Shown here: positions 44,496-57,379 of the stretch, in pieces
Numbering within the stretch: the stretch's first letter is position 1
How the letters are laid out: the number at the start of each line of letters is the position of its first letter
IMG/VR virus record: IMGVR_UViG_3300018080_000099
Span: 1 to 64,000 of that record
DNA length: 64,000 nucleotides
Source: a virus
Strand: one strand, 5' to 3'
Program-made: the position numbers and the translations under genes
The notes under the pieces: model-generated
Told to the model about the DNA's origin: nothing
Seen by the model: only the letters and a program-made list of their open reading frames with translations
Databases searched by the model: none

Positions 44496-44784
44496 CCCAG
44501 TACCATTCCATTTTCTCTATCATTTCGAGCTTGCGTATCATCACAGTCCACAACAATCTTCGTATATCAGTTGTGTCTATTATGTCTACCTCGCTATACA
44601 TCTTGTGGTAGTCGGTGATGCCCGCTATGACCTCTTCTACCGATACCTCGTTGGTGTTAAATCCAACCTTGAACTTCCCATCCAGATACAATCCCCATTC
44701 CCAAGTCATATTGATTGAAAAAGGATTGCTACTGATAATTGTTTCCTGAACCTTTGCTTGACGCTTTATTTCCCACCTAATCAT
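44476..44784 (-). CDS. small protein, family C (MIRWEIKRQ…)
   Basis: family motif. Confidence 0.45.
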   Translation of the reverse strand: MIRWEIKRQAKVQETIISSNPFSINMTWEWGLYLDGKFKVGFNTNEVSVEEVIAGITDYHKMYSEVDIIDTTDIRRLLWTVMIRKLEMIEKMEWYWDGTVGA

Positions 44785-45034
44785 CCTTACCCTCTATGTA
44801 ACCGACAAATTCATCCCAGTCCTTAAACTTTTGCTGCATAAGGACTTCTAATCGCTCAAGATGCCTCTTAGACTCCATCATGTCGGTCATACAGGATAAA
44901 ACAAGCCTCATGTCCACTTCTGTAAGGACATTCTTCTCATTAGGCTTGTTCACTGTCCATTTAACCAAAATATATGGTTCCTTCCCTAAAGTCAATAAGT
45001 CTCTGAAGTTAAGAAGCTTAAGTATCGCTCTCAC
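44777..45034 (-). CDS. small protein, family C (…LVKWTVNKP…WDEFVGYIEGKDD)
   Basis: family motif with N-extension. Confidence 0.45.
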   Translation of the reverse strand: MRAILKLLNFRDLLTLGKEPYILVKWTVNKPNEKNVLTEVDMRLVLSCMTDMMESKRHLERLEVLMQQKFKDWDEFVGYIEGKDD

Positions 45035-45251
45035 TATCTATATAGTCCAAATACTCCTCAAAGGTGAAAATCCCGCCTATTTTGTAGTAAGCCCAATTTG
45101 ACGCTCGCCAATAAAGCTCACCCTGACGATTCTTAGCCGGAAGGAGCATCATGCCACCTTTGAACATTTCCTTAGCTTCAAGGACATCCGTAAATGTCCA
45201 AACGGCTATCTGAGCCTTCTTGCCGCGCTTACTGCGTTTCCACTTAAGCAT
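45018..45251 (-). CDS. small protein, family C (MLKWKRSK…FEEYLDYIDSESD)
   Basis: family motif. Confidence 0.5.
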   Translation of the reverse strand: MLKWKRSKRGKKAQIAVWTFTDVLEAKEMFKGGMMLLPAKNRQGELYWRASNWAYYKIGGIFTFEEYLDYIDSESDT

Positions 45252-45471
45252 TGAACTTCTTATCTTTCTCTATGTCGTTAAGGTACTGATTCCACTTCCT
45301 TTTCGTTTTAGCCAATCCCCACTCAGGTAACATCCGCCAGACAATCTCCTTAGCCCTCATTAAGTCACACATGGCATCACGGACTTCCTCAGGCTTTAAA
45401 GGAATAGGCTTTTTGGAATCTTCGCTTATCCGATAGGTGGTGCTTGCCTTGTCAATGTACCAGAAAGTCAT
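45244..45471 (-). CDS. small protein, family C variant (MTFWYIDK…WNQYLNDIEKD)
   Basis: family motif. Confidence 0.45.
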   Translation of the reverse strand: MTFWYIDKASTTYRISEDSKKPIPLKPEEVRDAMCDLMRAKEIVWRMLPEWGLAKTKRKWNQYLNDIEKDKKFNA

Positions 45472-45689
45472 AAGCCATCCTCAACCATGTCCAAGAACTC
45501 TTCCCATATGTAAAATGGCCTAGTACGCCAGCACGGACCAATAGGAGGATTTGGGTACCAGTACCTTATGTATACTGGCCCATTAGTCTCCATAGCTTCC
45601 TTGACTTTTAGTACATCCGTACAGTGTTCCAACTGTGCGTCATCTTTCAGATGATAATAAATCCGTTTCTTAATACTCCATTTCCACAT
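45468..45689 (-). CDS. small protein, family C (MWKWSIKK…WEEFLDMVEDGL)
   Basis: family motif. Confidence 0.5.
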   Translation of the reverse strand: MWKWSIKKRIYYHLKDDAQLEHCTDVLKVKEAMETNGPVYIRYWYPNPPIGPCWRTRPFYIWEEFLDMVEDGL

Positions 45690-45910
45690 TAGTCATCCTC
45701 CACCCAGTCCAACCACTCATGAAAGGAATAGAACTTCTTCCATATCTTTCCTGTCCTTAAAAAGTCACTACCATCAAAGATAATGTAGAAGCCCATCTTC
45801 TCTATGTCAAGCTCTATCTCCTTCTTCATTTCCAATATGTCAATGTACTTCGCAGGCAAGACCACAAGCCTACCAATCTCTACCTTTTTATCCTGATGCC
45901 ATATCCACAT
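45689..45910 (-). CDS. small protein, family C (MWIWHQDKK…FHEWLDWVEDD)
   Basis: family motif. Confidence 0.5.
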   Translation of the reverse strand: MWIWHQDKKVEIGRLVVLPAKYIDILEMKKEIELDIEKMGFYIIFDGSDFLRTGKIWKKFYSFHEWLDWVEDD

Positions 45911-45913
45911 GAT

Positions 45914-46105
45914 TTATCCGAACTTAATGGTGTACGGCTCCCTGTCCTCATCTGATTCTACCTTGTCAAGCCACTCTTCCCATGCAGTATCAAAGTCCTC
46001 ATTCTGTACTACACTATACGCACGAATGAGCTTCTTAACTTCAAGCAAATCAATCCAATACCTGATTCTATGTCTGAATGTTTTATCCTGAATCCATCGC
46101 ATCAT
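45914..46105 (-). CDS. small protein, family C (MMRWIQDK…WEEWLDKVESDED)
   Basis: start reassigned to MMRW (ATGA overlap with upstream membrane ORF stop) instead of ORF-track 46141. Confidence 0.45.
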   Translation of the reverse strand: MMRWIQDKTFRHRIRYWIDLLEVKKLIRAYSVVQNEDFDTAWEEWLDKVESDEDREPYTIKFG

Positions 46106-46278
46106 AACATGCTTCCATATCTCCAGCTGTTCAATAAGCACGCTACAAAGAATAAGGAGATGTAACCAAAGACAACCAAGGCTATTAACCCTAAGGCTAT
46201 CAATCCCTTAACCAATAACCAGACTCCAGCAACTCCCGAAGCCAACCATATTCCCCAGACTATAAGCCAAAATGTCAT
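46102..46278 (-). CDS. small membrane protein (58 aa, 2 TM: MTFWLIVWGIWLASGVAGVWLLVKGLIALGLIALVVFGYISLFFVACLL…)
   Basis: not in ORF track (<60 aa); fills gap between paralogs with ATGA overlaps at both ends. Confidence 0.35.
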   Translation of the reverse strand: MTFWLIVWGIWLASGVAGVWLLVKGLIALGLIALVVFGYISLFFVACLLNSWRYGSML

Positions 46279-46484
46279 TCTCCGAACTCCAATAGGTATA
46301 AGTACACTTCTAGTCCGACATACCCGAGACCACTAACATACATCATTTCCTTACCATCCCTCGTACTCCTACATTTGGGAGCCGAGCTGTTAAGAAACTC
46401 TATGGCTTTCAGCACATCCGTCCTGCGCTCTACCCTGACTCTATCCATCCCATCATCAGTCTTACGAACTGTCCACCTAATCAT
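46275..46484 (-). CDS. small protein, family C (MIRWTVRK…)
   Basis: family motif. Confidence 0.45.
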   Translation of the reverse strand: MIRWTVRKTDDGMDRVRVERRTDVLKAIEFLNSSAPKCRSTRDGKEMMYVSGLGYVGLEVYLYLLEFGE

Positions 46485-46704
46485 TGTGTTCCTTTATCCA
46501 AATGTCAAGCTGTTCCCAATTGTCAACCTCTTCTAAGAAGTCAAGATACTCCTCAAAGGTACAACGCATGGTTATATGATTCAGTCCACGCATACCAAGC
46601 TGTACTTTCAGGCCGTTCTCTATATGCTTCTTCATCTCAAGCACATCCATGCATCGGCCCCAGTACACTTCATCCTTCGGTATGCCAGTCCACTTCCACA
46701 TCAT
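46477..46704 (-). CDS. small protein, family C (MMWKWTGIPK…FEEYLDFLEEVDN)
   Basis: family motif. Confidence 0.5.
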   Translation of the reverse strand: MMWKWTGIPKDEVYWGRCMDVLEMKKHIENGLKVQLGMRGLNHITMRCTFEEYLDFLEEVDNWEQLDIWIKEHND

Positions 46705-46904
46705 TCATCCTGACTTTCTATCCAGTCAAGGAAATCATCAAACGTATGAAACGTTAAGCCAATGTATTCTCCGACCCAAAATCCACTGAATTCACGATTG
46801 GATAGAATCCTCTCAGCCTCATGCTTACATTCCCACAAGTCAAGCCGATACTTAAGAGCATTATCAGCACCAGCACTCTTTTTATGTACAGTCCACTTCC
46901 ACAT
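46701..46904 (-). CDS. small protein, family C (MWKWTVHKK…FDDFLDWIESQDE)
   Basis: family motif. Confidence 0.5.
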   Translation of the reverse strand: MWKWTVHKKSAGADNALKYRLDLWECKHEAERILSNREFSGFWVGEYIGLTFHTFDDFLDWIESQDE

Positions 46905-46906
46905 AA

Positions 46907-47128
46907 TTAATCCTGATTTTCTATAAAGTCAAGGTAGTCATTAAACCTTTTACTAAGAGGCAAATCCGTCCTTGATTGGAATGTCATCCAGTGTTGCCCG
47001 AATCGCCTCCATACCTTAACTGGACGTCCAGACATTATTGCTTTCTTCATCTCCAATACATCAGTACATTGCTCTAGGGTAGCATAGTTCTCAACCCCTG
47101 CTGTCGTAATCACTTGCCACTTCCACAT
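46907..47128 (-). CDS. small protein, family C (MWKWQVITT…FNDYLDFIENQD)
   Basis: family motif. Confidence 0.5.
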   Translation of the reverse strand: MWKWQVITTAGVENYATLEQCTDVLEMKKAIMSGRPVKVWRRFGQHWMTFQSRTDLPLSKRFNDYLDFIENQD

Positions 47129-47334
47129 TACTTATCCATACCTTCTATCCACGTTAAAAAGACATCCCACTGCTTATCATTGAGATTGCTTATCTCCCTG
47201 ACTTTAAGTAAATCCCCACCAGCTCGAAACAACCAATCATTCACATCCCAACCGCGCTCCTTATTTACTCCCACGGTATTCCATATGATTGCCTCTAAAC
47301 TGTTGGCATCCTTATACTTAAACCATTTCCACAT
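47128..47334 (-). CDS. small protein, family C (MWKWFKYKD…WDVFLTWIEGMDK)
   Basis: family motif. Confidence 0.5.
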   Translation of the reverse strand: MWKWFKYKDANSLEAIIWNTVGVNKERGWDVNDWLFRAGGDLLKVREISNLNDKQWDVFLTWIEGMDK

Positions 47335-47353
47335 AATTCATCCACACATGTAC

Positions 47354-47551
47354 TTAAAACTTAATGCCAAAGTCATCAGCAGTTTCTATAAAGTCAAGGT
47401 ATTGGTCGAATGTCCAATCCAAGGTTTCAATCACGCTAGCAGTATCAGCTCCCAGCCTAATAGCATTCCCGGCCTCAATCCATTCCTTCATCTTCAGGAC
47501 ATCCGTACAGACATCCTTCGACTCAGCACTCAATCCTTTCCAAATCCACAT
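47354..47551 (-). CDS. small protein, family C (MWIWKGLS…FDQYLDFIETADD)
   Basis: family motif. Confidence 0.5.
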   Translation of the reverse strand: MWIWKGLSAESKDVCTDVLKMKEWIEAGNAIRLGADTASVIETLDWTFDQYLDFIETADDFGIKF

Positions 47552-47553
47552 AA

Positions 47554-47781
47554 TTACTCCTCATCCGGGTCAAAGGTTTCTATATAGTCAAGGAAAGCTT
47601 CCCAAGTATAAAAAGTCTTTCCCCTTATGTCACTAAACCAAAAGCACTTAAACAAATCATACTGCCCATCATCATCTGCTAAGGCAAAATAAACCACATC
47701 CCTTAACTTTAATAAGTCCGTCCGTATCCAAATGTTATTAGCAACATTAGAACTTTCCTTGTTAACTACCCATTGCCACAT
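47554..47781 (-). CDS. small protein, family C (MWQWVVNK…WEAFLDYIETFD)
   Basis: family motif. Confidence 0.5.
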   Translation of the reverse strand: MWQWVVNKESSNVANNIWIRTDLLKLRDVVYFALADDDGQYDLFKCFWFSDIRGKTFYTWEAFLDYIETFDPDEE

Positions 47782-47987
47782 TAACTTATCCTTATCTGTA
47801 CTATATTAGTGTTAGCAAAATCAATAGAATCCTCTAACCAATTCAAATAAAACTCAAACGAACGAAACGTTGCCCTTCCATTACTATAACAAAATGTTAC
47901 CTCACCATACTCCTCAATAAAAGACTTCATCTTAAGCACATCTAAATAAAGCTCTAAATCAACCTTATTCGTTCTCCATGTATGCAT
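47781..47987 (-). CDS. small protein, family C (MHTWRTNK…FEFYLNWLEDS)
   Basis: ATG start chosen (ORF track used upstream TTG at 48014). Confidence 0.45.
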   Translation of the reverse strand: MHTWRTNKVDLELYLDVLKMKSFIEEYGEVTFCYSNGRATFRSFEFYLNWLEDSIDFANTNIVQIRIS

Positions 47988-47989
47988 AT

Positions 47990-48118
47990 CTATCCCTCCA
48001 ACCAATTTAACCAATGCTCAAACGAATTAAAATAAGGCTCATACTTAGGATTCCGCGTCACCATATCCTTATCAAATAACTCCTTGACTTCTAAAACATC
48101 ACCATGACTAAGCATCAT
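47990..48118 (-). pseudogene. possible truncated/degenerate family C paralog (…MMLSHGDVLEVKELF…YFNSFEHWLNWLEG) lacking normal N-terminus
   Basis: C-terminal family motif in frame; upstream in-frame TGA removes MWKW-type start; only 42 codons from first ATG. Confidence 0.25.
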
Positions 48119-48201
48119 ATACACAACAGCATTGTTATGTCCGGTTCCGTCTATGTTTAGCTCCGCTGCATATTTTCATTCCCATTTTGCGCCGCCTATA
48201 A

Positions 48202-49065
48202 TTAAATGTTTTTGCGCAAAGCGGGGCGTTTTAGCGCATGGATGCGCTCTTCAGCTATCCGGCAGTATTTTTCTTCCTTCTCAATTCCTATGTAGTTCCG
48301 TCCAGTATTGATACAAGCGATTGCAGTTGTGCCAGAGCCGATGCAATTGTCAAGAACAGTGTTGCAGGTGGTTGAGTATGTTTCTATTAAATATTCTATC
48401 AATGGCAGCGGTTTTTGCGTAGGGTGAAAGTTTACATCGGTGCCTTTTTTGTATACTTTGTTTTTTGCAGTGTTTATTGTAACGGAAAATGGAACTATAG
48501 AAAACGGGTTGCGCGTACCATCGTCAGGCAGTCTCGTCTTCCGCATAGGAGAGTAAACATTATTTCCGGCAATCTCAAATTTATCAAAAGTCTTTCTCTT
48601 TGTCAAAAAAGCGTTATCATCCACCACTACTTTTCTTGGATTAAAAACTTTTATGGGGTTTTTCGAAAACACTGCTATGTTCTCGTGTATTTTCATGTGC
48701 TTGTTTCCAAATCCATTACCAGCCCTGTTTTTAAGCCAAACCAATTCTTCGCGAAACCAATCTACCTTTGATGTCACTAAGCTGGAGAAAAACGGTTGCG
48801 AGCCAAATAGAACAATTGGCCCATCAGTCAGCCTTTCGTATTGTTCCCACAGCGAAGCGAAAGAAATAACGGTGTCCCACTTGCAAGCGGTTTTTCCATA
48901 CGGCAAATCGCACAGAATCATGTCCACGCTTTTATCCGGTATCAACGGCATTATTTCAAGACAATCCCCGCAGATTATTGTATTTGTTTTCGGCACAGGA
49001 CGTGCCGCCTTATCCGCGCCTATAACTTCAGAGTTTTTCATATTTCTCCTAACGTTCTCACGCAC
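48202..49065 (-). CDS. DNA N6-adenine/N4-cytosine methyltransferase (beta-class, PF01555-like)
   Basis: motif IV-like SVDMILCDLPYG near N-terminus, motif I DNCIGSGTTAIAC...NYIGIE near C-terminus; first gene of - operon. Confidence 0.65.
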   Translation of the reverse strand: MRENVRRNMKNSEVIGADKAARPVPKTNTIICGDCLEIMPLIPDKSVDMILCDLPYGKTACKWDTVISFASLWEQYERLTDGPIVLFGSQPFFSSLVTSKVDWFREELVWLKNRAGNGFGNKHMKIHENIAVFSKNPIKVFNPRKVVVDDNAFLTKRKTFDKFEIAGNNVYSPMRKTRLPDDGTRNPFSIVPFSVTINTAKNKVYKKGTDVNFHPTQKPLPLIEYLIETYSTTCNTVLDNCIGSGTTAIACINTGRNYIGIEKEEKYCRIAEERIHALKRPALRKNI

Positions 49066-49391
49066 TCGCCTGCTGTTTGTGCTTACAAAGATGATGTTTA
49101 AAGGTATATGAACACGCCATTTCTAAGCATCGCATACCACTCTTTGCACAAATGGCAGGCTGCGTGTGTTGTGCGATGTGCGGTTAGCTTTCCTCTTGTC
49201 CTGCCGCCGCCTCTTCGTCAGTTAATTCTCGATACTCCAGTTTTACATTAATCTCACCGTGAATATCCAAATCATCCCAAAGGTGCTCCATCACCTCACA
49301 AGCATATTCAAGTGCCGTATTTTCCCAGTTTTTACCATCTCGCTCTGAAAATATGCACGTATGAACTGTTTTTGTGTGGAGTTACAATCAT

Positions 49392-49427
49392 TCCTTTCAT
49401 ATTTTTCCCTCCTTTCATATTTTTCCC
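49392..49427. repeat. tandem direct repeat 2 x 18 bp (CCTTTCATATTTTTCCCT)
   Basis: exact duplication read directly. Confidence 0.8.
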
Positions 49428-49539
49428 TTCTTTCGGCGGCCTATAAATTCAGAATTTGCCATATTGCACCTAACGGTTTGGCGCATTACGAAGTGCCCTC
49501 GATACAGTCGCAATCGTAGCACCCATGCTTATCATGTGC

Positions 49540-50200
49540 CTGACACTCCTGCCCTGTTCCTAACGTTTCTGTTTCCATATCCATATCTCCTTTCCGAATC
49601 CATATTCTACATCCGAATCCTGATTCCATATCCACGAATGAGTTATCCACACGTTATCCACACTAAGTGATTGACACTTAAGAAACTTATCCACGCTTAC
49701 CCACAACTACCCACTCTATTAAAAATACCCCCGGTAGCCTCTCCCGCGACAGAGAAAAGTCTCCAAAACTGACTCCAAAAGACTCCAAGACTGACTTTAT
49801 ATAACAGTTTTCAGGGACGCTTTTATAAAACTACTTAGTCACTTCTTCCCTTTACAAATAATAATACTAACTTTCCGAGTCTGCTTTCAGTATCCACATC
49901 CACTTTCCGAATCCGAATGCTTAATCCTAACTCTTTATCCGAGTAAGTCTTTCAGACTTAGTCCATATCCATATTCCGAATCCTGATTTAGTTTCTGGAC
50001 TCCTTATCCGAGTCCTGATTCCGAGTAAGTCTTTCAGACTTAGTCCACATCTGCTTTCCGAATCCATATCCTGATTCTGAATCCATATCTGCTTTCCACA
50101 TCCGAACAAGTCCTTCGTGGGACTTAATCCATTTTCCGAATCTGGATTCTATATCCTTATCTGCCATTAGTTTTCCGCTTGGTTGACTAAAGGGAATGAT
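49540..50200. other. putative replication-origin-like non-coding region: 3 DnaA boxes (49643-49651, 49654-49662 TTATCCACA; 49687-49695 TTATCCACG), 12-bp palindromes GAATC(N2)GATTC (49614, 49978, 50010, 50138; GATTCTGAATC 50073), 28-bp direct repeat TCCGAGTAAGTCTTTCAGACTTAGTCCA x2 (49938-49965, 50021-50048)
   Basis: sequence motifs read directly; located between divergent transcription arms. Confidence 0.5.
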
Positions 50201-50371: not shown

Positions 50372-50567
50372 ATAGCCTTCCTTACTTAAGGGAATTAGAT
50401 GTTCTACATTATGATACTATATGGGAGAGTGTCTTGTCAATAAAGCTACCTTATATCAATGTAGCATAAGTTTTTTAAGGAAACCTCGGGGTCTGGTGGT
50501 TGACATATCAGAATACCGTAAGTTGGCATGGTATTTGAAGTGAGCAATAATCGTGCCAAGGGATTCA

Positions 50568-50644
50568 TTTAATCGGTTAAACTAGAGACCAAGCTCCCCT
50601 TTGGTTCCCCGTGAGTCTCTTTCGTGACCCAAAGATGTTTCAGT
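50568..50644 (-). ncRNA. candidate small non-coding transcript from consensus - strand promoter (50651-50680), contains GGGGAACC / TTTAACCGATTAAA element
   Basis: promoter TTGACA-18-TATATT on - strand with no downstream ORF/ATG; conserved segment shared with 51064-51170 locus. Confidence 0.25.
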
Positions 50645-50733
50645 ACTAATAATATACAACATGGCAATGGGTTTGTCAATAGGAAAGTTGAACTTTCTGG
50701 TTAACCGCTTAACTAGATTTTTAAAAATAGAGC

Positions 50734-50762
50734 TTGACAATTCAGTACCGGGAATGTATATT
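50734..50762 (+). promoter_or_regulatory. consensus promoter TTGACA-17-TATATT + conserved leader CTGTACACTCAACAAAGGAGATGG
   Basis: gcttgacaattcagtaccgggaatgtatattat. Confidence 0.6.
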
Positions 50763-50791
50763 ATCTGTACACTCAACAAAGGAGATGGAGA

Positions 50792-51073
50792 ATGGGAAGC
50801 TTCAAAGAGGAATGGACCGAGGCGATGGAATGGTGGCAGGGACTGGGCGAGATGCCTAACATGTTTTATGGTGGCATGTTTGATGTAACTGCCAAGGTAC
50901 GTGAGATTGCTTCACGGCGACTCCAGTTGAGGCTGGCGGGCACTGGAGAGGGTATTGGTACATCGGATGTCAACCATGAGGTATTCAGCATTTACCGGGA
51001 GTACAAGGCTTCTGAGGCACCAAGTGTCCTTAGCTTTCTTGTTAGCATAAATGCGGAGTTAGAGGGGATTTAG
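50792..51073 (+). CDS. hypothetical protein (93 aa)
   Basis: ORF track; RBS AAAGGAGATGGAG. Confidence 0.55.
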   Translation: MGSFKEEWTEAMEWWQGLGEMPNMFYGGMFDVTAKVREIASRRLQLRLAGTGEGIGTSDVNHEVFSIYREYKASEAPSVLSFLVSINAELEGI

Positions 51074-51086
51074 CATCCCCTTTTTT
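51064..51086. terminator. rho-independent terminator (GGGGAUUUAGCAUCCCC + U6)
   Basis: stem-loop + T-run. Confidence 0.65.
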
Positions 51087-51170
51087 AAGTGTTTATTTAA
51101 CCGCTTAAATTGGAGGCCAGGTGGGGCCTTGGCTCCCCGGGGTCCCGTTCGGTTCCCAAGATGTTTCAGT
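51087..51170 (-). ncRNA. candidate small non-coding transcript from - strand promoter (51177-51205); contains GGGAACCGAACGGGACC and ATTTAACCGCTTAAAT
   Basis: consensus - strand promoter, no ORF, ends at bidirectional terminator. Confidence 0.25.
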
Positions 51171-51261
51171 ACATATAATATACATTACTGAACAGGTTTT
51201 GTCAAGCTCTTTTTTAATTTATTTTTACTTAATCGCTTAAATAAAAAAGTGTTAATTGCTA

Positions 51262-51290
51262 TTGACTTTTAAGTGAGCGTGATGTATATT
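51262..51290 (+). promoter_or_regulatory. consensus promoter TTGACT-17-TATATT driving leaderless mRNA
   Basis: tattgacttttaagtgagcgtgatgtatatt; ATG 7 nt after -10. Confidence 0.55.
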
Positions 51291-51296
51291 ATTGTC

Positions 51297-51458
51297 ATGG
51301 AAAAGAAAAGGTTTGAATTCGTAGACAGAACCGAAGCCAAGAGCGGCGAGGAAGCCAAGGCCAAGTATCCGTGGGCGACTACATGGGGCAAGGCTGTTGG
51401 TGGCTGGATGGTGTTCGAGAGCCAAGCCGACTTGGAGGAATGGAGGAGGAGCGGATGA
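51297..51458 (+). CDS. small protein (53 aa), probable leaderless start
   Basis: ATG 51297 lies ~7 nt downstream of -10; ORF track 51273 start is inside the promoter. Confidence 0.45.
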   Translation: MEKKRFEFVDRTEAKSGEEAKAKYPWATTWGKAVGGWMVFESQADLEEWRRSG

Positions 51459-51823
51459 GGTACAAGGATATGAAGGAGCGGTTCGGAGCCCATGCTCTGG
51501 CGGATGTAGACGTGAATCCGATGCGTGTTGTGGAGCATCAGCATTTCTCGAGTCCGTCAAGCCATGACTACCGGGGCGACGCCATTGATGAGTGTGTCCG
51601 GGAGAAGCTGGATTTTGCGTCCACCTGTAACGTGGTGTTTGAGATGGCGAAGCGGTATGTCAAGGTGAGCTGTCCGAAGTGCCGTCGCAACATGGAGAAC
51701 CGCGGCGGAGGCGGCAGTGGTACTGCAATCACCATTGATTACCACTGCAAGCATTGTGACATAGCCTTTGAGCTGTCGATGCAGTCGGATGGTATGTTCG
51801 TGTCGTTCCCTGAGAATGAATAA
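51455..51823 (+). CDS. zinc-finger protein (CPKC…CKHC)
   Basis: ATGA overlap, RBS GGAGGAG inside ORF 51371..51823. Confidence 0.5.
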   Translation: MRYKDMKERFGAHALADVDVNPMRVVEHQHFSSPSSHDYRGDAIDECVREKLDFASTCNVVFEMAKRYVKVSCPKCRRNMENRGGGGSGTAITIDYHCKHCDIAFELSMQSDGMFVSFPENE

Positions 51824-51901
51824 TGGGATGGAGCCGTTAAAACAACGGCTCTTTCCTTTAGTCTGAGCTTAACCGCTTAAATAAAAAAGCGCAAAAAGAC
51901 C

Positions 51902-51930
51902 TTGACATTTCAGTGCGGGTGATGTATATT
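51902..51930 (+). promoter_or_regulatory. consensus promoter + conserved leader
   Basis: ccttgacatttcagtgcgggtgatgtatattattggggtacttaacaaaaggagatgg; TTAACCGCTTAAAT 25 bp upstream. Confidence 0.6.
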
Positions 51931-51960
51931 ATTGGGGTACTTAACAAAAGGAGATGGTAC

Positions 51961-52395
51961 ATGAACATCACCCTCAAGAGTCTGAAGGTGTGCGAGTGGA
52001 ATTCAGAAGAAACCACTTGTTTCACAGCCACGATGTATGTGGACGGACAGAGAGTGTGCAAGGTTTCGAACGAAGGGCATGGTGGACCGAACATGTACAT
52101 GCCCGTGTACAATGAGTCTTTGTTGAAGAAGGCTCAGGATTTTGTTGGTGCGATTCCTTGCAAGGGATATTCTTTCAACCATGATTTGGATACGTGGTTG
52201 GGAGATGTCATGGAGAAGATGGAAGAGGAGAAGCAACTCAAGAGGTGGTGTCGCACCAAGATTGTTGCGAGAACCAAAGATGGCAAGAAGGGTTCTTATC
52301 TGGTGTGGAAGGGACAGTTCACACCGCAGGCGAAGGAAATCCTGCTCAAGAAGAATCCTGACATAGTGGAATTTGTCAACGAGAGATTCCTCTAA
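51961..52395 (+). CDS. hypothetical protein (144 aa)
   Basis: ATG after RBS AAAGGAGATGG inside ORF 51913..52395. Confidence 0.55.
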   Translation: MNITLKSLKVCEWNSEETTCFTATMYVDGQRVCKVSNEGHGGPNMYMPVYNESLLKKAQDFVGAIPCKGYSFNHDLDTWLGDVMEKMEEEKQLKRWCRTKIVARTKDGKKGSYLVWKGQFTPQAKEILLKKNPDIVEFVNERFL

Positions 52396-52513
52396 GACAT
52401 TATCCCTCGGCGGTTATAGTCGAGTTCATGGGTGCTGGGGAGTGCCCTTCGAACTATGGCTGCTCCGCCGGGGGATTCTTTTACGCTCTGTTTAAAATAC
52501 AGCTGGAATATTT

Positions 52514-52545
52514 GGGGCAAAGAGAAAGGGAGCCCGGAGGCTCCC
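52514..52545 (-). terminator. terminator for - strand 3-gene operon (GGGAGCCUCCGGGCUCCC + U-rich)
   Basis: stem-loop with U-rich tail on - strand. Confidence 0.55.
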
Positions 52546-52562
52546 ACCCTGCTCAAGGGTAA

Positions 52563-52814
52563 TTAGTCTAGTGGTTCGAGGTTGATGTCGTTTTGTCCCA
52601 TGACACCGTGAGCCAATTTGAATTCGAAGCTCAGGGCATGGAGATATTCGAGGATGCCGTCTTGCATGGCGGTAAGGCAGTCGACGGCATTTTGACAGCC
52701 GGGCTTACGCTCTTCTGTCTGTGCCAGTTCGTGGTACTTTTTGAACGCCTCAGCAGACTCGATGATGATAGTCGCTTTGTTGTTCAGTGTGTGTTGGATT
52801 TCGTCCTGCTTCAT
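52563..52814 (-). CDS. hypothetical protein (83 aa)
   Basis: internal ATG with RBS AAGGAGG inside ORF 52563..52850. Confidence 0.5.
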   Translation of the reverse strand: MKQDEIQHTLNNKATIIIESAEAFKKYHELAQTEERKPGCQNAVDCLTAMQDGILEYLHALSFEFKLAHGVMGQNDINLEPLD

Positions 52815-52831
52815 GAAGCCTCCTTGACAAC

Positions 52832-53035
52832 TTAGAACCAGCTGTCGCACACAAGGCAGTGGGATTGATTGTCAACCCTGAATGCCTTAATGTTGAATCG
52901 TACGTTGTCCCAGAAGCCCGGCTCGTCCTTTTTGTGGCAGTCCACAAGTTCGTGGGCTCCGCAGTGAGGACAAATCAGACAGCCGCAGGGCGTATCTGAT
53001 TCAACGACAACGATTTTGACTTGAGGTTCCGGCAT
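52832..53035 (-). CDS. zinc-ribbon protein (CGCLICPHCG…C…CLVC)
   Basis: ORF track. Confidence 0.5.
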   Translation of the reverse strand: MPEPQVKIVVVESDTPCGCLICPHCGAHELVDCHKKDEPGFWDNVRFNIKAFRVDNQSHCLVCDSWF

Positions 53036-53107
53036 GTCATCTCCTTGTGATATGGTAAAAGTTCCCCTGTAATATACAACAGGGGAACTTAAATGTCAAG
53101 CGATTTC

Positions 53108-53503
53108 TTACAGATTGTTCAGGGCATTCGTTACAGCTGGCACAACCGTCTTCCAGAATTCGTCGGCAACAATCAGGGCGCAGTGGTAATCGGGAGCCAA
53201 GTCCTCTTCTGTCAAGAGGTCGGGAACCATCCGTGATTCGATACCGCATTCGATGATTCGTTTCATGATTGCCTTTGCTGATTCCACGGCAACTTCGCAT
53301 TCGGCATCGAACGGAACATTCAGGGTTCCGCCACGGTTGATGTCATCATGCCACATCTGCTTGTTGGTTTCGTAATGCTGATTGACAAAATCGGAAAAGG
53401 ACAACTGCTCTTCCATCTCGTCGTTCCATGCATTGTGGGCTTCGTGGAGGTTGTTCATACCGAACTCGTCCATCCAGTCCACCATGTTTGGGAAGTCTGA
53501 CAT
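53108..53503 (-). CDS. hypothetical acidic protein (131 aa)
   Basis: RBS AACAAGGAGATGG downstream of - strand consensus promoter. Confidence 0.55.
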   Translation of the reverse strand: MSDFPNMVDWMDEFGMNNLHEAHNAWNDEMEEQLSFSDFVNQHYETNKQMWHDDINRGGTLNVPFDAECEVAVESAKAIMKRIIECGIESRMVPDLLTEEDLAPDYHCALIVADEFWKTVVPAVTNALNNL

Positions 53504-53530
53504 ACCATCTCCTTGTTAAGGTACACACAT

Positions 53531-53559
53531 AATATACATCATGTGCGCTGAAAAGTCAA
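53531..53559 (-). promoter_or_regulatory. consensus promoter on - strand (TTGACT-17-TATATT)
   Basis: revcomp ccttgacttttcagcgcacatgatgtatattatgtgtgtaccttaacaaggagatgg. Confidence 0.55.
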
Positions 53560-53716
53560 GGATTATTTTACGATTGTAGAAACCGTTTGTCTTTGTTGAA
53601 CTTCAGATGGTTGGCTTCGGCTTCTGTCAGCCCGATGAATTCATTTGAGCTGAAAGAGATTTCGTCTGGGTAATACGAGAACAGCAAACACATCCCCCAA
53701 AAAAACTAAAATATCG

Positions 53717-53745
53717 CTTGACAAATCAGTCTCCTTGTTGTATAT
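53717..53745 (+). promoter_or_regulatory. consensus promoter
   Basis: cgcttgacaaatcagtctccttgttgtatatt. Confidence 0.55.
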
Positions 53746-53773
53746 TACTGTCAAAAGAAAGGAGACATGAAAA

Positions 53774-53968
53774 ATGTCAGCCATTATTTCGTTTGCAACA
53801 ACTTCCATTCTGGGTGTGATACTCGCCATTGTGGTTGGTATCATAGCTCTATTGGTGTTGTTCGGACTCGCCAAGTTCGCATGGGCTTTGATGTCCGACT
53901 TCGCCGGATTGATTGTTGCTTTTATCATCGTTGGCATAATTCTTGCTGTGACGGTATTCATTATATGA
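53774..53968 (+). CDS. small membrane protein (64 aa, 2-3 TM)
   Basis: ORF track; RBS AAAGGAGAC. Confidence 0.45.
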   Translation: MSAIISFATTSILGVILAIVVGIIALLVLFGLAKFAWALMSDFAGLIVAFIIVGIILAVTVFII

Positions 53969-54363
53969 GTGGCGACACATTCAAGATTGATGGCAACGTA
54001 GTTGTCTGTACATCCGCGTCGGGCAGTGTATATCAGCTGACTGAGAACTCCTGCACATGCAAGGGGTTCTCATTCCGGCGCAACTGTAGGCACCTGAAAC
54101 AAGCCACAGAGTCCGGTATCTTCAAACGATTGAAGAAAGGGTTCTCTGCTTTGCACTCACCTTATAAGGGTAGCTTCAGACGTTCCCCTTATATTATGAA
54201 GGAGAGAATCAAGGCTGTTCGTGCATACCTTGAGAAGAACGGGTTTAATAACCCATCTGGCAATATGTTACACGAAGTCGAGAAGATTGTAACACCTGAG
54301 ACTCAGCCCGGCACGGTTCTTGCTTTAGCAAAAAAAATCGAGAAAAGTGAAAAAAAGGGTTGA
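53965..54363 (+). CDS. SWIM zinc-finger protein (CTCKGFSFRRNCRH)
   Basis: ATGA overlap; CxCxnCxH motif; ORF 53767..54363 N-terminal part is out-of-frame readthrough of membrane gene. Confidence 0.45.
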   Translation: MSGDTFKIDGNVVVCTSASGSVYQLTENSCTCKGFSFRRNCRHLKQATESGIFKRLKKGFSALHSPYKGSFRRSPYIMKERIKAVRAYLEKNGFNNPSGNMLHEVEKIVTPETQPGTVLALAKKIEKSEKKG

Positions 54364-54388
54364 CAACGAGACTGAAATGAAGTATATT
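54360..54388 (+). promoter_or_regulatory. consensus promoter
   Basis: gttgacaacgagactgaaatgaagtatatt. Confidence 0.5.
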
Positions 54389-54450
54389 ATTACCATGAGA
54401 TTAAGAAACACCGATACAAACCCTTTTCACCTAACAGAAAGGAGCCACTC

Positions 54451-54624
54451 ATGAAGGCTCACAAAGTTGGCGCAATCAAGTACCGTTCACGTTCAGCCGC
54501 CGCGGTGGCGCTGGCAAAGCGGACGAACCTCAGCAACACCGAGATTGCCAAGAAGGTTGGCATGACTCCTCAGACGGTGTGTGCGGCTCTTCGCCGGGAG
54601 ATGCTCAAGGGTTACAACGACTAA
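54451..54624 (+). CDS. small HTH protein, family D (K.H..RSRS.AA…TEIAKKVGMTPQTV)
   Basis: RBS AAAGGAGCC; paralog of 54814, 57892 N-termini. Confidence 0.45.
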   Translation: MKAHKVGAIKYRSRSAAAVALAKRTNLSNTEIAKKVGMTPQTVCAALRREMLKGYND

Positions 54625-54745
54625 TCCATCTCCTCTCCTGAAAAGATGGGTGTCCGGAAACGGGCACCTGTCTTTTTATTTCCCCCGTAATGTCTTGTCA
54701 GATAAGAGTCTATCCTGTCCGACATGAAAAAATAGCATTTAGGGG

Positions 54746-54774
54746 TTGACAAACTACTTTTTTTGATGTATACT
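54746..54774 (+). promoter_or_regulatory. sigma70-type promoter TTGACA-17-TATACT
   Basis: ggttgacaaactactttttttgatgtatact. Confidence 0.5.
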
Positions 54775-54813
54775 ATAAGGGTAGTTTGTTTAACTTTTCG
54801 AAAGGAGCCTCTT

Positions 54814-54981
54814 ATGAAGTCTTTCGACTACAGAGGCAAGAAGCACCGCAGCCGTTCACAGGCGGCGATGCAGATGCTCAAGCGGACGAAGCGCAGCCAG
54901 AGCGAAATCGCGCGCATCGTGGGCATCACTCCCCAGACTGTGAACGCAACCAAACGTATCCATAACCTCCGGGTAGCATAG
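54814..54981 (+). CDS. small HTH protein, family D (…RSRSQAA…SEIARIVGITPQTV)
   Basis: RBS AAAGGAGCC; inside ORF 54763..54981. Confidence 0.5.
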   Translation: MKSFDYRGKKHRSRSQAAMQMLKRTKRSQSEIARIVGITPQTVNATKRIHNLRVA

Positions 54982-54988
54982 GAGGTAA

Positions 54989-55016
54989 GGGCCGGCTTGG
55001 TGCCCGGCCCTTTTTT
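54989..55016. terminator. terminator (GGGCCGGCUUGGUGCCCGGCCC + U6)
   Basis: stem-loop + T-run. Confidence 0.65.
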
Positions 55017-55077
55017 ACGCCCACCAGTTTAACCGCTTAAATAAAAGACCGAGCTGTCCGTTCACTGGCCTAACCAC
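55017..55077 (-). ncRNA. candidate small non-coding transcript from - strand promoter (55084-55112); contains GTGAACGGACAGCTCGGTC + TTTAAGCGGTTAAA
   Basis: consensus promoter without ORF; conserved element family. Confidence 0.25.
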
Positions 55078-55130
55078 ACTTATAATATACTAAAAAGGAG
55101 CTGACTTGTCAACCCCTTTTTAGCATTTTT

Positions 55131-55367
55131 TTATACAGACTGGATTTCAAACGAGCCGGGTCCGTTGCCCTCGTCATCCCTCAGAAGCCATAGCACTTTT
55201 TTGTTTTCGCTCCTGTCCTTCAGGATGATACCATAGTGCTGTTCTTCTGTCGGGTCTGAGGTTGCATCATACGTGAAGCCGCATACTATGAAACCACGTA
55301 GAGGCTTCAGTTTGTTGATGTAGAACCGGGTTTGTTTGGATGGCTTTACCTCTTCCTCATTTGACAT
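55131..55367 (-). CDS. hypothetical protein (78 aa)
   Basis: RBS AAAGGAGGAG; - strand consensus promoter 55395-55423. Confidence 0.5.
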   Translation of the reverse strand: MSNEEEVKPSKQTRFYINKLKPLRGFIVCGFTYDATSDPTEEQHYGIILKDRSENKKVLWLLRDDEGNGPGSFEIQSV

Positions 55368-55394
55368 GCTCCTCCTTTAAGGTTTGTTGATACC

Positions 55395-55423
55395 AATATA
55401 ACTCATTCGAGAGGACTTGTCAA
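55395..55423 (-). promoter_or_regulatory. consensus promoter on - strand, back-to-back with + promoter 55448-55476
   Basis: revcomp gcttgacaagtcctctcgaatgagttatatt. Confidence 0.55.
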
Positions 55424-55447
55424 GCACAAATTATTTTTATTTTCCTA

Positions 55448-55476
55448 TTGACACTTGAGCTGAAATGAATTATATT
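55448..55476 (+). promoter_or_regulatory. consensus promoter
   Basis: tattgacacttgagctgaaatgaattatatt. Confidence 0.55.
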
Positions 55477-55499
55477 TAAGGTATCAAAGGAGATGAGGA

Positions 55500-56174
55500 A
55501 TGAACAAGTCCCAACAAGTCAGAGAATGGTTTGATACCGGCGTCATCGACATGAGCCCTGATAAGAAGTTGTGGGCTGCTACCAAGCTCGGCATGACGAT
55601 ACAGACGGTTCACGCAGCTCTGGTGAGACACACCAAGACGAACAACCCCACACAGCCAACAGTCCCCTCCCACACCGACTATGACATTAAGAATGTCATC
55701 AAAGGTAAGGTTGAGGATTGCCTTCAGATGGCAAGACAGGCAGGCTACCGTACCCCTTCAATTATAGATGTCAGATGGGACTTGAGGGGCAAAACCGCAG
55801 GGCAAGCATGTCACAGATTCACGGGTTCATACATCAGAGTCAACATGGTTCTAGCTCGGGAGAATCGGGAACACTACATTGCACAGACGGTTCCCCACGA
55901 GGTAGCACACATCATCGACCACTACCACAACGGTAGAAGCAGTGGACATGGACGCCCTTGGAAGCGAATCATGGAGCTTGCCTTCAGACGGCCGGCTGAC
56001 AGATGCCACTCTTACGACACCACCAACGCACGGGTTCGGACGTTGAGAAGATACCAATATGTATGTGACTGTGCCACCCCACACAACATCACGAGCATCA
56101 AACACAGAAGAATCCAGCTCGAAGGTGCCCGGTATATATGTAAGAGGTGCAGGGGAGTCCTGAGACTCCCCTGA
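55500..56174 (+). CDS. HTH + SprT-like zinc metallopeptidase domain protein
   Basis: N-terminal KLGMTIQTVHAAL (HTH, family D-like); HEVAHIIDH HExxH; C-terminal Cys pairs (YVCDC…CKRC) as in SprT family. Confidence 0.55.
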   Translation: MNKSQQVREWFDTGVIDMSPDKKLWAATKLGMTIQTVHAALVRHTKTNNPTQPTVPSHTDYDIKNVIKGKVEDCLQMARQAGYRTPSIIDVRWDLRGKTAGQACHRFTGSYIRVNMVLARENREHYIAQTVPHEVAHIIDHYHNGRSSGHGRPWKRIMELAFRRPADRCHSYDTTNARVRTLRRYQYVCDCATPHNITSIKHRRIQLEGARYICKRCRGVLRLP

Positions 56175-56192
56175 AAAAAGATAAAAAAGAGC

Positions 56193-56221
56193 TTGACAAC
56201 TCAGCGACAATGATGTATATT
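56193..56221 (+). promoter_or_regulatory. consensus promoter
   Basis: gcttgacaactcagcgacaatgatgtatatt. Confidence 0.55.
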
Positions 56222-56246
56222 ATTTGACATGAAAGGAGAAGAACCA

Positions 56247-56531
56247 ATGTCAAACGCCCTCACCACCCAACTCAGGCAGAGCGGAGCCGCCGTTGCGGTT
56301 CACCCTGACACCGACCGTTACAAGAATCGGTTCGATGTTCGCTCAGGAAGTTCCAACCGTGTCTACCGTATCAGCTACGACGCTGCCCCCGGTGCCGGTT
56401 ACTGGGTATGTTCATGCCCCGGCTGTATCAGGCATGGCGACTGCAAGCACCTTCGGGCTGTCGGACTGCAGGGACGGAAGTACGGACGAGTGTCACTCGA
56501 AGCCTCCATCAAGAGAGCACTCAATGGCTAA
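56247..56531 (+). CDS. SWIM zinc-finger protein (CSCPGCIRHGDCKH)
   Basis: RBS GAAAGGAGAAG; CxCxnCxH. Confidence 0.5.
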   Translation: MSNALTTQLRQSGAAVAVHPDTDRYKNRFDVRSGSSNRVYRISYDAAPGAGYWVCSCPGCIRHGDCKHLRAVGLQGRKYGRVSLEASIKRALNG

Positions 56532-56838
56532 GAAGCGCCAGTCGGTATTCGACCCCGACTATGCTCCCTACGGGACCTACAAAGGTCCCAAGGGGAGCCC
56601 TGACGAATGGAAGCAAGCCTTCCGTGAGATGTTTGGTTCGGTGGAGGAAGCTCAGGAAGCTCTGGGTAAGGACCACCCGCTTAACATCCTCGGATTGAAT
56701 CTTGGAGCTACGATAGAGCAAATCAAGGCGGCGTTCCGCAAGATGGCTCTGAAGTTCCATCCTGACAAAAACAAAGACCCGGAAGCTCCTTCGATGTTCC
56801 GGAAAATCTGTGCGGCATACAAAGTGCTCATGGGCTGA
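56527..56838 (+). CDS. J-domain (DnaJ-like) protein
   Basis: HPD tripeptide in KMALKFHPDKNKDPEA…KICAAYKVL; helix II/III pattern of J domain. Confidence 0.65.
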   Translation, partial: AKKRQSVFDPDYAPYGTYKGPKGSPDEWKQAFREMFGSVEEAQEALGKDHPLNILGLNLGATIEQIKAAFRKMALKFHPDKNKDPEAPSMFRKICAAYKVLMG

Positions 56839-56847
56839 AAAAAGTCC

Positions 56848-56876
56848 TTGACAAATCAGGTCGCGTGTTGTATATT
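56848..56876 (+). promoter_or_regulatory. consensus promoter
   Basis: ccttgacaaatcaggtcgcgtgttgtatatt. Confidence 0.55.
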
Positions 56877-56922
56877 AAGGGTGTTGAAGGAGGCACCCTT
56901 AACCACTCAAAGGAGTAGAGAG

Positions 56923-57285
56923 ATGCCACTCACGTACACGAAGGTCAACCGGCGGGAGGAAGTCAGCCGGGAGGAAGTCGAGCTGAAGCCATACGACCAC
57001 TGGGGAATGTTCACCAGTGCTGGCAACCGGAGACTCCGGACGCTGGCTCAGCAGCTGCTTGACAAGATGGAAAAGGAGACTGACCACCTTGCCCGCCAGC
57101 AGCTCATCGTCTGGTACCTGAAGAAGATTAACAAGGTATCCAGCTTCGAGACGTACAGCGAAGCCAGCGACACGGCAGTCCGCGAATACATCTGGGACTT
57201 CATAGTCAAGGTGTGTGGCTGTGTGGACATCAGTACCGGCACGGCTGACGACCTGTGGGAAAAGTACTACAGGCCGGAGTACTAG
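56923..57285 (+). CDS. hypothetical protein (120 aa)
   Basis: RBS CAAAGGAG; inside ORF 56848..57285. Confidence 0.5.
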   Translation: MPLTYTKVNRREEVSREEVELKPYDHWGMFTSAGNRRLRTLAQQLLDKMEKETDHLARQQLIVWYLKKINKVSSFETYSEASDTAVREYIWDFIVKVCGCVDISTGTADDLWEKYYRPEY

Positions 57286-57344
57286 GAAGTGACAGAAGTC
57301 AGGTAAGTCCGACTGAGCTAGAAAGAGAAAGTCGGACTTCCCTC

Positions 57345-57373: not shown

Positions 57374-57379
57374 TTAGAC

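Follow-up and report, generated by a model that had tools for sequence, protein, structure and literature searches.

Theta-type origins that combine iterons with DnaA boxes (P1 oriR, F oriS, pSC101, and R6K) and the basal unwinding system of bacterial oriC, which comprises a DnaA-box pair, a GC cluster, DnaA-trios, and an AT-rich tract, are the described replication origins closest to the locus considered here. This locus, hereafter the block, is a set of nested repeats, hairpins, and palindromes around a cluster of DnaA-box-like 9-mers at positions 49574-50165 of a 64,000-nucleotide stretch of viral DNA (positions 1 to 64,000 of the IMG/VR record IMGVR_UViG_3300018080_000099; hereafter the window). 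The block is a variant of the known DnaA-box/repeat nucleoprotein regions. Judged from its sequence, it would be a DNA-level nucleoprotein-assembly site, most likely a replication origin of the “DnaA boxes plus direct repeats” type, a reading that we hold tentatively, with a probability of about 0.35. An initial annotation of the window had proposed an origin at this place. Its motifs are largely real, and its interpretation appears reasonable but unproven: the architecture fits in outline, but several of the supports cited for it fail or are neutral.

The block resembles iteron-type theta origins in having tandem co-oriented DnaA boxes beside arrays of ~19-bp direct repeats, an AT-richer patch, and a non-coding character. 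It differs from them in lacking an adjacent rep gene, in having repeats that are contiguous and nested rather than about two helical turns apart, in carrying additional hairpins and palindromes, and in lying within a predicted transcription unit in the early region of a virulent-looking 264-kb phage. As in the oriC basal unwinding system, two boxes spaced by one helical turn come first, and a GC cluster and an AT-richer patch lie in that order on the 3' side of TTATCCACA; unlike in that system, a run of DnaA-trios is missing, ~80 nt of 10- to 12-nt repeats precede the AT patch, and the patch itself is weak. The classical DnaA-unwinding layout of doublet, (CTA)6 trios, and AT tract is displayed by an unrelated microvirus contig, L005 (see below). 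Among phage origins, lambda ori consists of four 19-bp repeats beside an AT-rich tract, is activated by transcription, and lies inside the initiator gene, T4 oriE consists of short direct repeats, and at T4 oriF and oriG a transcript that starts from a promoter and forms an R-loop provides the primer. In contrast to the block, lambda ori, T4 oriE, and T4 oriF are not known to have DnaA boxes, and no initiator gene of the kind that contains lambda ori is present at the block.

Outside replication origins, direct and inverted repeats together with palindromes fill an untranslated region of 1.2 kb in T5-like phages that also contains pairs of DnaA boxes 3 bp apart; this region lies beside or within the pre-early genes transcribed by the host RNA polymerase (RNAP), the replication origins map elsewhere, and Davison proposed that DnaA mediates the arrest of DNA injection there (bioRxiv 10.1101/866236). 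The block and the T5 iss region (Repeat Region 3, IRC/IRD) have in common an untranslated stretch of ~1 kb that is rich in repeats and palindromes, DnaA-box pairs at two loci, location in the earliest, host-RNAP-transcribed region, and a large virulent phage as the carrier. In T5, the boxes of a pair are separated by 3 bp, and the pairs belong to inverted repeats that lie ~3 kb from each other within the terminal repeat, whereas in the pairs described here the boxes are 2 bp apart and directly oriented, and the pairs are separated by 16 kb; blastn against 50,697 GenBank phage records showed no homology of the block to T5-like repeat regions. In the virulent phage phi29, five parS sites for Spo0J, together with Spo0A boxes, serve an alternative life cycle (PMC2731898). 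The present phage likewise has putative sites for host chromosome or cell-cycle proteins, in this case a perfect parS and DnaA-box doublets, but its parS is located outside the block, 16 kb to the right, Spo0A boxes are absent, and DnaA sites are not part of the phi29 system.

DnaA-box array and repeats of the block

The features of the block are as follows.

49574-49640, + strand: left repeat block of TCCATA hexamers, with two clear 19-mers and a 21-nt variant containing a palindrome; abuts the DnaA boxes
49580 and 49599, + strand: the two left-block 19-mers, TCCATATCTCCTTTCCGAA and TCCATATTCTACATCCGAA
49615-49626: exact palindrome GAATCCTGATTC, inside the 21-nt variant
49628: weaker, unphased box-like 9-mer ATATCCACG
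49643, + strand: DnaA-box-like 9-mer 1, TTATCCACA, perfect match
49654, + strand: DnaA-box-like 9-mer 2, TTATCCACA, perfect match
49687, + strand: DnaA-box-like 9-mer 3, TTATCCACG
49697, + strand: DnaA-box-like 9-mer 4, TTACCCACA, in register with the preceding boxes
49707, + strand: DnaA-box-like 9-mer 5, CTACCCACT, in register with the preceding boxes
49729-49752: GC-rich cluster CCCCGGTAGCCTCTCCCGCGACAG, located after the DnaA boxes and before the AT-rich patch
49753-49797, + strand: three direct repeats of 10 to 12 nt, (A)AAAGWCTCC or GACTCCAAAA (TTGGAGWC three times on the - strand; Tandem Repeats Finder periods of 10, 12, and 22)
49796-49879: modest AT-rich patch of low stability, 84 nt, 70% AT, the only candidate DNA-unwinding element of the region
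49873-50165, + strand: right repeat block, about four modules repeating every 82 nt
49874, 49893, 49962, 50044, 50063, and 50082, + strand: starts of the right-block 19-mers
49938-49965: first copy of the exact 28-nt repeat TCCGAGTAAGTCTTTCAGACTTAGTCCA, with the hairpin TAAGTCT-TTC-AGACTTA at 49944-49960
50020-50047: second copy of TCCGAGTAAGTCTTTCAGACTTAGTCCA, with the hairpin at 50026-50042
50108-50125: third, diverged hairpin AAGTCC-TTCGTG-GGACTT, with the same stem words and a different loop
50138-50149: exact palindrome GAATCTGGATTC, at the right edge of the block

The DnaA-box array (49643-49715) consists of five co-oriented 9-mers on the + strand within 73 bp; their start-to-start distances of 11, 33, 10, and 10 nt place them on one face of the helix. 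The two perfect copies at 49643 and 49654 are the only perfect DnaA-box 9-mers in the window. Boxes with at most one mismatch are not enriched across the window (22 versus 16.6 ± 4.1 expected); the local occurrence, however, of four boxes within 63 bp on one strand, including both perfect copies, is far beyond chance. The three boxes of the initial annotation (49643, 49654, and 49687) were found exactly at those positions. The closely spaced pair (49643/49654), the triplet (49687-49715), and the GC-rich cluster that follows reproduce the order seen in oriC-type regions.

Repeats flank this array on both sides. The 19-mer unit, TCCAYA-TCTGCTT-TCCGAA, is present in eight copies matching TCCAYATCTGCTTTCCGAA (four with at most two mismatches), all on the + strand. 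These constitute a co-oriented direct-repeat array of the ~17- to 22-bp kind that characterizes iteron origins, although they are nested in periods of 6, 13, and 82 nt and irregularly spaced. In the right block, every module combines a TCCGAG or TCCGAA lead with a hairpin, a TCCAYATCTGCTTTCCGAA-type 19-mer, and a palindrome of the GAWTC type. The core word WTCCGARTM occurs 13 times in the window (4.4 ± 2.3 expected), with 10 of these sites, all on the + strand, between 49592 and 50142 and 8 in the right block. The 28-nt hairpin module is identical between its two copies at all 28 positions while the rest of the 82-nt unit is only ~53% identical, which suggests either constraint or recent conversion. 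This is the 28-bp repeat of the initial annotation, the second copy of which starts one position earlier than was given there (50020, not 50021). That annotation also listed five copies of the palindrome GAATC-NN-GATTC: two are exact (49615 and 50138), those at 49978 and 50010 have one mismatch each, and the sequence at 50073 has a different arrangement, GATTC-T-GAATC.

The triplet TCC occurs 43 times on the + strand of the 600 nt from 49570 to 50169 (window mean, 9.8; standard deviation [sd], 6), the maximum across the 83 kb made up of the window and its flanks, whereas GGA occurs there 4 times; consecutive TCC triplets are mostly 6, 7, or 13 nt apart. Autocorrelation detects periods of 82, 13, 19, and 6 nt (z = 7.5, 6.1, 5.1, and 4.8, respectively), compared with z values of at most 3.5 in ten coding controls. 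Five of the eight tandem-repeat entries for the whole window fall in the block, which is unique within the 83 kb. Its core (49575-49875) is non-coding in all six frames under a codon model trained on the same phage; for this reason, and because the 82-nt period is not a multiple of 3, a coding repeat was ruled out.

Two other identities were considered and rejected. A mimic of a CRISPR repeat or host REP element is not indicated, as the 19-nt core of the hairpin has a single match, at chance level, in 596 Gbp of species-representative genomes (a Hymenobacter chromosome). The repeat core TTCCGAA is one mismatch away from the TGNCGAA of Spo0A boxes, but no consensus boxes were found in the block or at the promoters; TGTCGAA occurs 13 times (9.3 expected), never in either of these places. 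GANTC sites are dense in the block, with 16 between 49596 and 50150 compared with ~4.5 per kb in the window. Control by GANTC methylation, by analogy with GATC in P1 oriR and pac, is unsupported, as the neighbouring methyltransferase is a generic beta-class N6A/N4C enzyme (75 bits versus a cutoff of 830 for the CcrM equivalog) to which no specificity can be assigned.

Second DnaA-box doublet and parS site

Extension of the sequence by 10 kb on each side (flanks L022 and L024) revealed a second DnaA-box doublet 16 kb away from the block: two copies of AGTTATCCACA with 11-nt spacing on the same strand, at window-equivalent positions 65892 and 65903 (L024 12505-12524). This doublet sits in a non-coding intergenic gap of 600 nt, ~100 nt upstream of the start of an early promoter. 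Lying 131 nt to its left, at window-equivalent position 65761 (L024 12374-12389), is the sequence TGTTCCACGTGAAACA, which is a perfect match to the parS consensus of chromosomal ParB/Spo0J, TGTTNCACGTGAAACA. Sites with the parS consensus have an expectation of 0 in shuffled sequences, and none is present in the region of the block. The same gap may also hold a probable small transcript bounded by a terminator (approximately L024 12200-12345).

The exact 22-nt doublet is also found in five unrelated viral contigs, three of which, representing two independent elements, have a perfect or near-perfect parS. One of them (L005, 3702-3919) is a 5.5-kb microvirus encoding an F-capsid protein and a rolling-circle Rep, in which the doublet is accompanied by parS, (CTA)6 DnaA-trios, and an AT tract; two others (L002, 7837-9060; L003, 403-1630) are contigs of large phages with ~30% GC that carry several doublet-parS pairs. 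Since the relative arrangement of doublet and parS differs among these contigs, the pairing looks convergent rather than derived from a shared cassette. DnaA-box doublets are exemplified by T5-like phages, the orphan jumbo phage described here, a microvirus, and some large phages with 30% GC, and they are accompanied by host-type parS in three lineages, not including the T5-like phages. A general coupling of DnaA and parS in viral contigs was found to be unsupported: across 120 parS-bearing viral loci, DnaA boxes have the same density of 0.05 per kb near parS and away from it, so that only a small subset of contigs has the pairing.

Recurrence of the doublet at a second non-coding site and in unrelated contigs argues that it is a selected DnaA site and not a chance occurrence, and supports the view that the doublets would be genuine DnaA-binding sites. 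Together, these loci show the phage collecting what are predicted to be binding sites for host chromosome-maintenance proteins. The position of the second doublet next to a host-type parS makes room for readings other than an origin.

Transcription, margins, and the phage genome

The following features adjoin the block.

50440->50411, - strand: strong leftward promoter of the sigma-70 type, TTGACA-N18-TATCAT
50371->49988, - strand: 127-aa open reading frame (ORF) with an N-terminal membrane helix, the first gene after this promoter
49184-49578, - strand: left margin, decaying or small coding sequence
49578->49486, - strand: 30-aa Cys-rich ORF
49439-49485, - strand: copy of the ribosome-binding site (RBS) and first 8 codons of the methyltransferase (49018-49064), 47 nt, 79% identical
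49392-49427, - strand: 18-nt tandem reading GGGAAAAATATGAAAGGA, a duplicated Shine-Dalgarno/ATG module
49342->49187, - strand: distal part of a frameshifted small ORF (break near 49335-49345) with strongly coding-like codon usage

The early promoters of this phage form a strikingly uniform sigma-70-type family (an A-rich UP element, TTGACA, N17, and TATATT). Of 36 near-consensus members, 27 lie on both strands between 50.4 and 64 kb (50411-63672), starting directly to the right of the block, and a few lie at 1705-28043. This cluster resembles the large “host-takeover” modules of phages such as SPO1 or T5, which depend on the host RNAP, and the right arm consists of small early genes for at least 24 kb. 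Six promoters, at 50679, 51205, 55112, 61759, and 63307 (- strand) and at 58481 (+ strand), are not followed by an ORF; instead, each is followed by ~50 nt with a 5' hairpin and then by a conserved near-perfect palindrome, TTTAAGCG(G/C)TTAAA. These elements are candidate short non-coding transcripts or operator sites, and a search of Rfam gave no match to the family.

The initial annotation had taken the methyltransferase gene as the start of the leftward operon. The nearest strong leftward promoter actually lies at 50440->50411, upstream of the 127-aa ORF, with two further leftward promoters upstream of it (50679 and 51205). The leftward arm of 9 kb contains ~40 small genes and is essentially devoid of internal promoters, the sole strong one being at 43278. 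As no - strand terminator is predicted between the leftward promoters and the block, the block would occupy the leader-proximal part of an early unit, between the 127-aa ORF and the methyltransferase gene, and is probably transcribed from the strong leftward early promoters. The 127-aa ORF extends 150 nt into the repeats, so that its last 50 codons come from the repeat block. The part encoded by 50371-50141 is common to the variant P0002, the tail (49991-50140) has ambiguous codon usage, and these last 50 codons are probably not a genuine domain.

The left margin is decaying coding sequence, not part of an origin. The 18-bp tandem at 49392-49427, which had been counted among the origin repeats, does exist, but it is a duplicated RBS/ATG module of the frameshifted small ORF and not an origin element. 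Further into the left arm, ~13 tandem paralogues of a 65- to 77-aa protein (MWKW...DVLEMKK...F.EYLDFIE) are encoded on the - strand at 44777-48124; in a profile search of 5.8 billion clustered proteins, members of this family were detected only on contigs of the same phage.

At the right edge of the block, assemblies of near-identical strains part ways. Contig L007, of 2,081 bp and from a sister sample, matches the window with 100% identity from 52048 to 50141 and diverges completely at 50140/50141, inside the palindrome GAATCTGGATTC. Its 173-nt tail (1909-2081) continues the 127-aa ORF in frame to a zinc-finger C terminus (CxxC...CxxCxGxG) and contains two GATC sites, a sequence that the phage lacks throughout the 83 kb. 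A third assembly, of 50-200 kb, has the methyltransferase gene and the 30-aa ORF (49578) but apparently not the 127-aa ORF (50371), and seems to stop or to diverge between these two positions. Independent assemblies thus break or differ at the right block, and the breakpoint could stem from a genuine recombinant, from heterogeneity within the population, from a chimera, or from an artefact related to a terminus.

The window belongs to a metagenome contig of 263,805 bp in the European Nucleotide Archive (ENA), and a second assembly measures 264,037 bp. The element is a jumbo phage of the virulent type rather than a plasmid, as indicated by a gene for a CCA-adding enzyme split by a GIY-YIG gene, an HNH endonuclease, an NAD-salvage set, and Thg1. 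A megaplasmid oriT or leading region was accordingly ruled out, both by these hallmark genes of large virulent phages in the flanks and by the lack of plasmid similarity. The NAD-salvage set is full (NAPRTase, NAD synthase, NMNAT-like, nicotinamidase-like, NUDIX, and NADAR proteins); the genome further encodes an NAD-dependent ligase, RlaP, and MoxR/VWA proteins. The unusually complete NAD-salvage and repair genes are located at window positions 5637-16683 and at L024 14773-20243, with a PnuC-type NMN transporter and an AAA_28 (NadR-like) protein just beyond the window, and presumably counter NAD-depleting host defences. The CCA-adding enzyme (PolyA_pol) gene is apparently interrupted by the GIY-YIG homing-endonuclease gene (L022 6001-8393, ~1.6-4 kb to the left of the window start), and the HNH endonuclease is encoded near 1420-1710. 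A 998-aa protein (10224-13220, + strand) combines the shoulder and repeat domains of the major vault protein (PF11978 and PF17795) with an SPFH/Band-7-like segment and is unusual for a phage. The tetranucleotide GATC is absent from all 83,198 bases of the window and its two flanks, compared with ~320 occurrences expected from composition, a total avoidance of the site of the Dam/DpnII/Sau3AI type.

This phage is an orphan lineage. Megablast and blastn found no DNA relatives, near or distant, among the 50,697 GenBank phage records, and no phage protein exceeds 31% identity to the ligase. The neighbouring proteins are confined to contigs of the same phage (a 160-aa neighbour has no relative in IMG/VR), homologues of the methyltransferase (at most 66% identity) occur in unrelated contexts, and the remaining contig copies of the phage are all at least 99.7% identical. 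Two metagenome scans with block sequences as queries returned nothing, and when viral contigs were scanned for a three-core pattern, only unrelated repeats, coding or tandem, came up.

Possible replication origin and other readings

If the block is a replication origin, host DnaA would bind the phased head-to-tail array of five boxes (49643-49715), and a repeat-binding protein, probably encoded by the phage, would occupy the co-oriented TCCGAA/TCCAYA arrays and the palindromes on both sides. Jointly, the two proteins would open the nearby 70%-AT patch (49796-49879), and strong leftward early transcription through the block, producing a G-rich RNA, might help to activate or prime the origin. 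What the sequence itself shows is the motifs, their phasing and uniqueness, the non-coding core, and the promoter setting, whereas DnaA binding, a repeat-binding protein, unwinding, and replication activity are inferred. The origin reading is favoured because of the phasing of the boxes, the polarity of GC cluster followed by AT patch, the flanking direct repeats, the predicted transcription, and the nearby parS. The outline is origin-like: phased co-oriented boxes, a GC cluster, a modest AT patch downstream, and 19-nt repeats on both sides. To the 3' side of boxes oriented as TTATCCACA come the GC cluster and then the locally least stable patch, a polarity shared with L005 and with bacterial basal unwinding systems. 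The parS site 16 kb away would complement a DnaA-dependent origin in an episomal, carrier-state mode.

A number of results weigh against an origin. No gene for a Rep, initiator, helicase, or primase was recognized in the 9-kb left arm or in the 24 kb to the right (PHROGs, Pfam, and NCBIfam for the neighbours and precomputed Pfam matches within ±10 kb and across another 10 kb to the right, leaving orphan proteins without a known fold), and no cognate Rep gene adjoining the repeats, as expected of an iteron origin, emerged from PHROGs, Pfam, or NCBIfam. DnaA-trios are absent, with only CTA-TTA after the last box and no run of 3-nt periodicity. The block has no strong unwinding element: its AT patch belongs to the 0.6% least stable 60-mers but is not among the 15 weakest of the window, and the AT richness claimed initially for the region proves weak (GC of 0.41 versus 0.45 for the window), with only the 84-nt patch reaching 70% AT. 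Cumulative GC skew, proposed earlier as a check, has only a local notch at the block: it falls across the leftward arm and rises again from 50 kb, whereas within the available 83 kb it is lowest at the far left. The notch follows from the orientation of the 9-kb leftward operon and offers no independent support for an origin. The repeats are contiguous, hierarchical (6, 13, 19, and 82 nt), and nested in a satellite-like fashion, unlike regularly spaced iterons. The gene debris at the left edge and the structural breakpoint between near-identical strains at the right edge both fit a recombination-prone junk region. The block has no similarity to any plasmid origin and no match among PLSDB plasmids, and no diverged relatives were found among GenBank phages, in IMG/VR, or in the metagenome scans. 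Finally, the T5 group, the only other virulent phages known to carry pairs of DnaA boxes in the early region, has them at a place that is not an origin (bioRxiv 10.1101/866236).

This last observation leads to the possible, though on balance doubtful, alternative that the block captures host DnaA without a role in replication, like T5 iss or the host-factor sites of phi29, with the array and its scaffold tethering or gating the phage DNA. Such a site might act as a DNA-entry checkpoint, as a roadblock or regulator of the leftward early operon that starts from 50440, or as part of a set of host-protein sites (DnaA at two loci, ParB at parS) that could position, silence, or segregate the genome or titrate DnaA in the course of host takeover. 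Its appeal lies in the box pairs 2 bp apart within a host-promoter early region, as in the repeat-rich untranslated region of T5-like phages, in the location of the array between the first gene and the other ~40 genes of a nearly promoterless leftward unit, which bound DnaA could gate, and in the second doublet, so close to both an early promoter and a perfect parS. The use of host Spo0J/parS and Spo0A sites by the virulent phi29 for its alternative life cycle provides a precedent (PMC2731898). On the other hand, the DnaA role at T5 iss is itself just a hypothesis, the block has no sequence similarity to T5 or any GenBank phage, Spo0A boxes were not found, and the viral parS loci are not generally enriched in boxes. 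A bolder and rather unlikely generalization holds that unrelated phages convergently plant DnaA-box doublets in non-coding DNA as a means of capturing host chromosome-maintenance proteins. The block would then be a DnaA-anchoring or -loading scaffold rather than a lytic origin, serving either an episomal “carrier” mode coupled to the host cell cycle, with DnaA-dependent replication and ParB/parS segregation, or the sequestration of DnaA during takeover.

We give a low probability to a genome-terminus or packaging region, in which the block would mark or border either a physical genome end or the limit of a long terminal repeat holding the early “host-takeover” genes, and function in terminase recognition, concatemer processing, or the start of DNA ejection. 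In T7, short-repeat arrays reportedly lie immediately internal to the terminal repeats and precede the early promoters (Dunn and Studier, 1983), which is reminiscent of the uniform early promoters that begin directly to the right of the block. T5 and SPO1 house their host-RNAP early modules within long terminal repeats (PMC10531801). The divergence of the sister assembly into foreign, GATC-containing sequence at 50140/50141 and the apparent lack of the 127-aa ORF, but not of the 30-aa ORF, in the third assembly would also fit an end at which assemblies break. Still, either a true recombinant or a chimeric assembly may account for the breakpoint, two independent contigs of ~264 kb span the block uninterrupted, the vicinity contains no terminase or packaging gene, and the DnaA-box array would be left unexplained. 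The array is also a difficulty for the similarly improbable view that the block is a neutral, slippage-generated satellite in a decaying intergenic stretch, grown from sequence resembling a paralogue gene junction (stop, RBS, ATG-TGG-A), in which at most the DnaA doublet is functional: five phased array members exceed a single tandem duplication, and the repeats share their strict strand polarity with the boxes. The hierarchy of periods from 6 to 13 to 19 to 82 nt is typical of stepwise duplication, the margins contain duplicates of the methyltransferase start and of an RBS module as well as a frameshifted ORF, and the right edge is a strain-level breakpoint. The best non-training matches of a left-arm gene-junction profile in the 64-kb window are four sites in the block, all on the - strand, but these are individually weak (E = 0.2-2.7); moreover, phage genomes seldom keep 0.6 kb of junk, and the 28-nt hairpin module is perfectly kept between otherwise diverged units. 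Very improbable, finally, is an RNA-level element, a GGA-rich leftward transcript (43 GGA in 600 nt, three hairpins) acting as a sponge for CsrA/RsmA-like or other triplet-binding proteins, as a processing or stability element, or as an antitermination signal for the 9-kb operon. Three leftward promoters in tandem do lie upstream of the block, without a predicted - strand terminator, one strand shows an extreme excess of GGA, the transcript folds more favourably than shuffled versions (z = -2.85), and the hairpin GGACUC-GGAUAAG-GAGUCC exposes GGA in its loop. The + strand, however, folds better still (z = -4.4), as expected of DNA palindromes rather than of RNA-specific structure; the stems of the hairpins are conserved but their loops are not, the GGA spacing of 6 to 7 nt is far denser than in known CsrA sponges, and DnaA boxes are DNA-level signals. 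An Rfam RNA family was likewise rejected, with no family reaching the gathering score over the window, only a spurious miRNA match at E ≤ 5, and both strands folding well in the manner of DNA palindromes.

For jumbo phages, hardly any replication origins have been mapped, and what DnaA boxes do in virulent phages, as at T5 iss, has been an open question since 1987. The locus offers a compact, testable fragment of ~650 bp, with a putative strong DnaA-binding array in an unrelated giant phage and with a second doublet and a host-type parS nearby. If it is simply an origin, the result would be a useful but unsurprising annotation. If binding of both DnaA and ParB were confirmed, it would mean that large lytic-type phages can plug into the initiation and segregation machinery of the host, and such use of host machinery, if true, would bear on carrier states, phage persistence, and host takeover.

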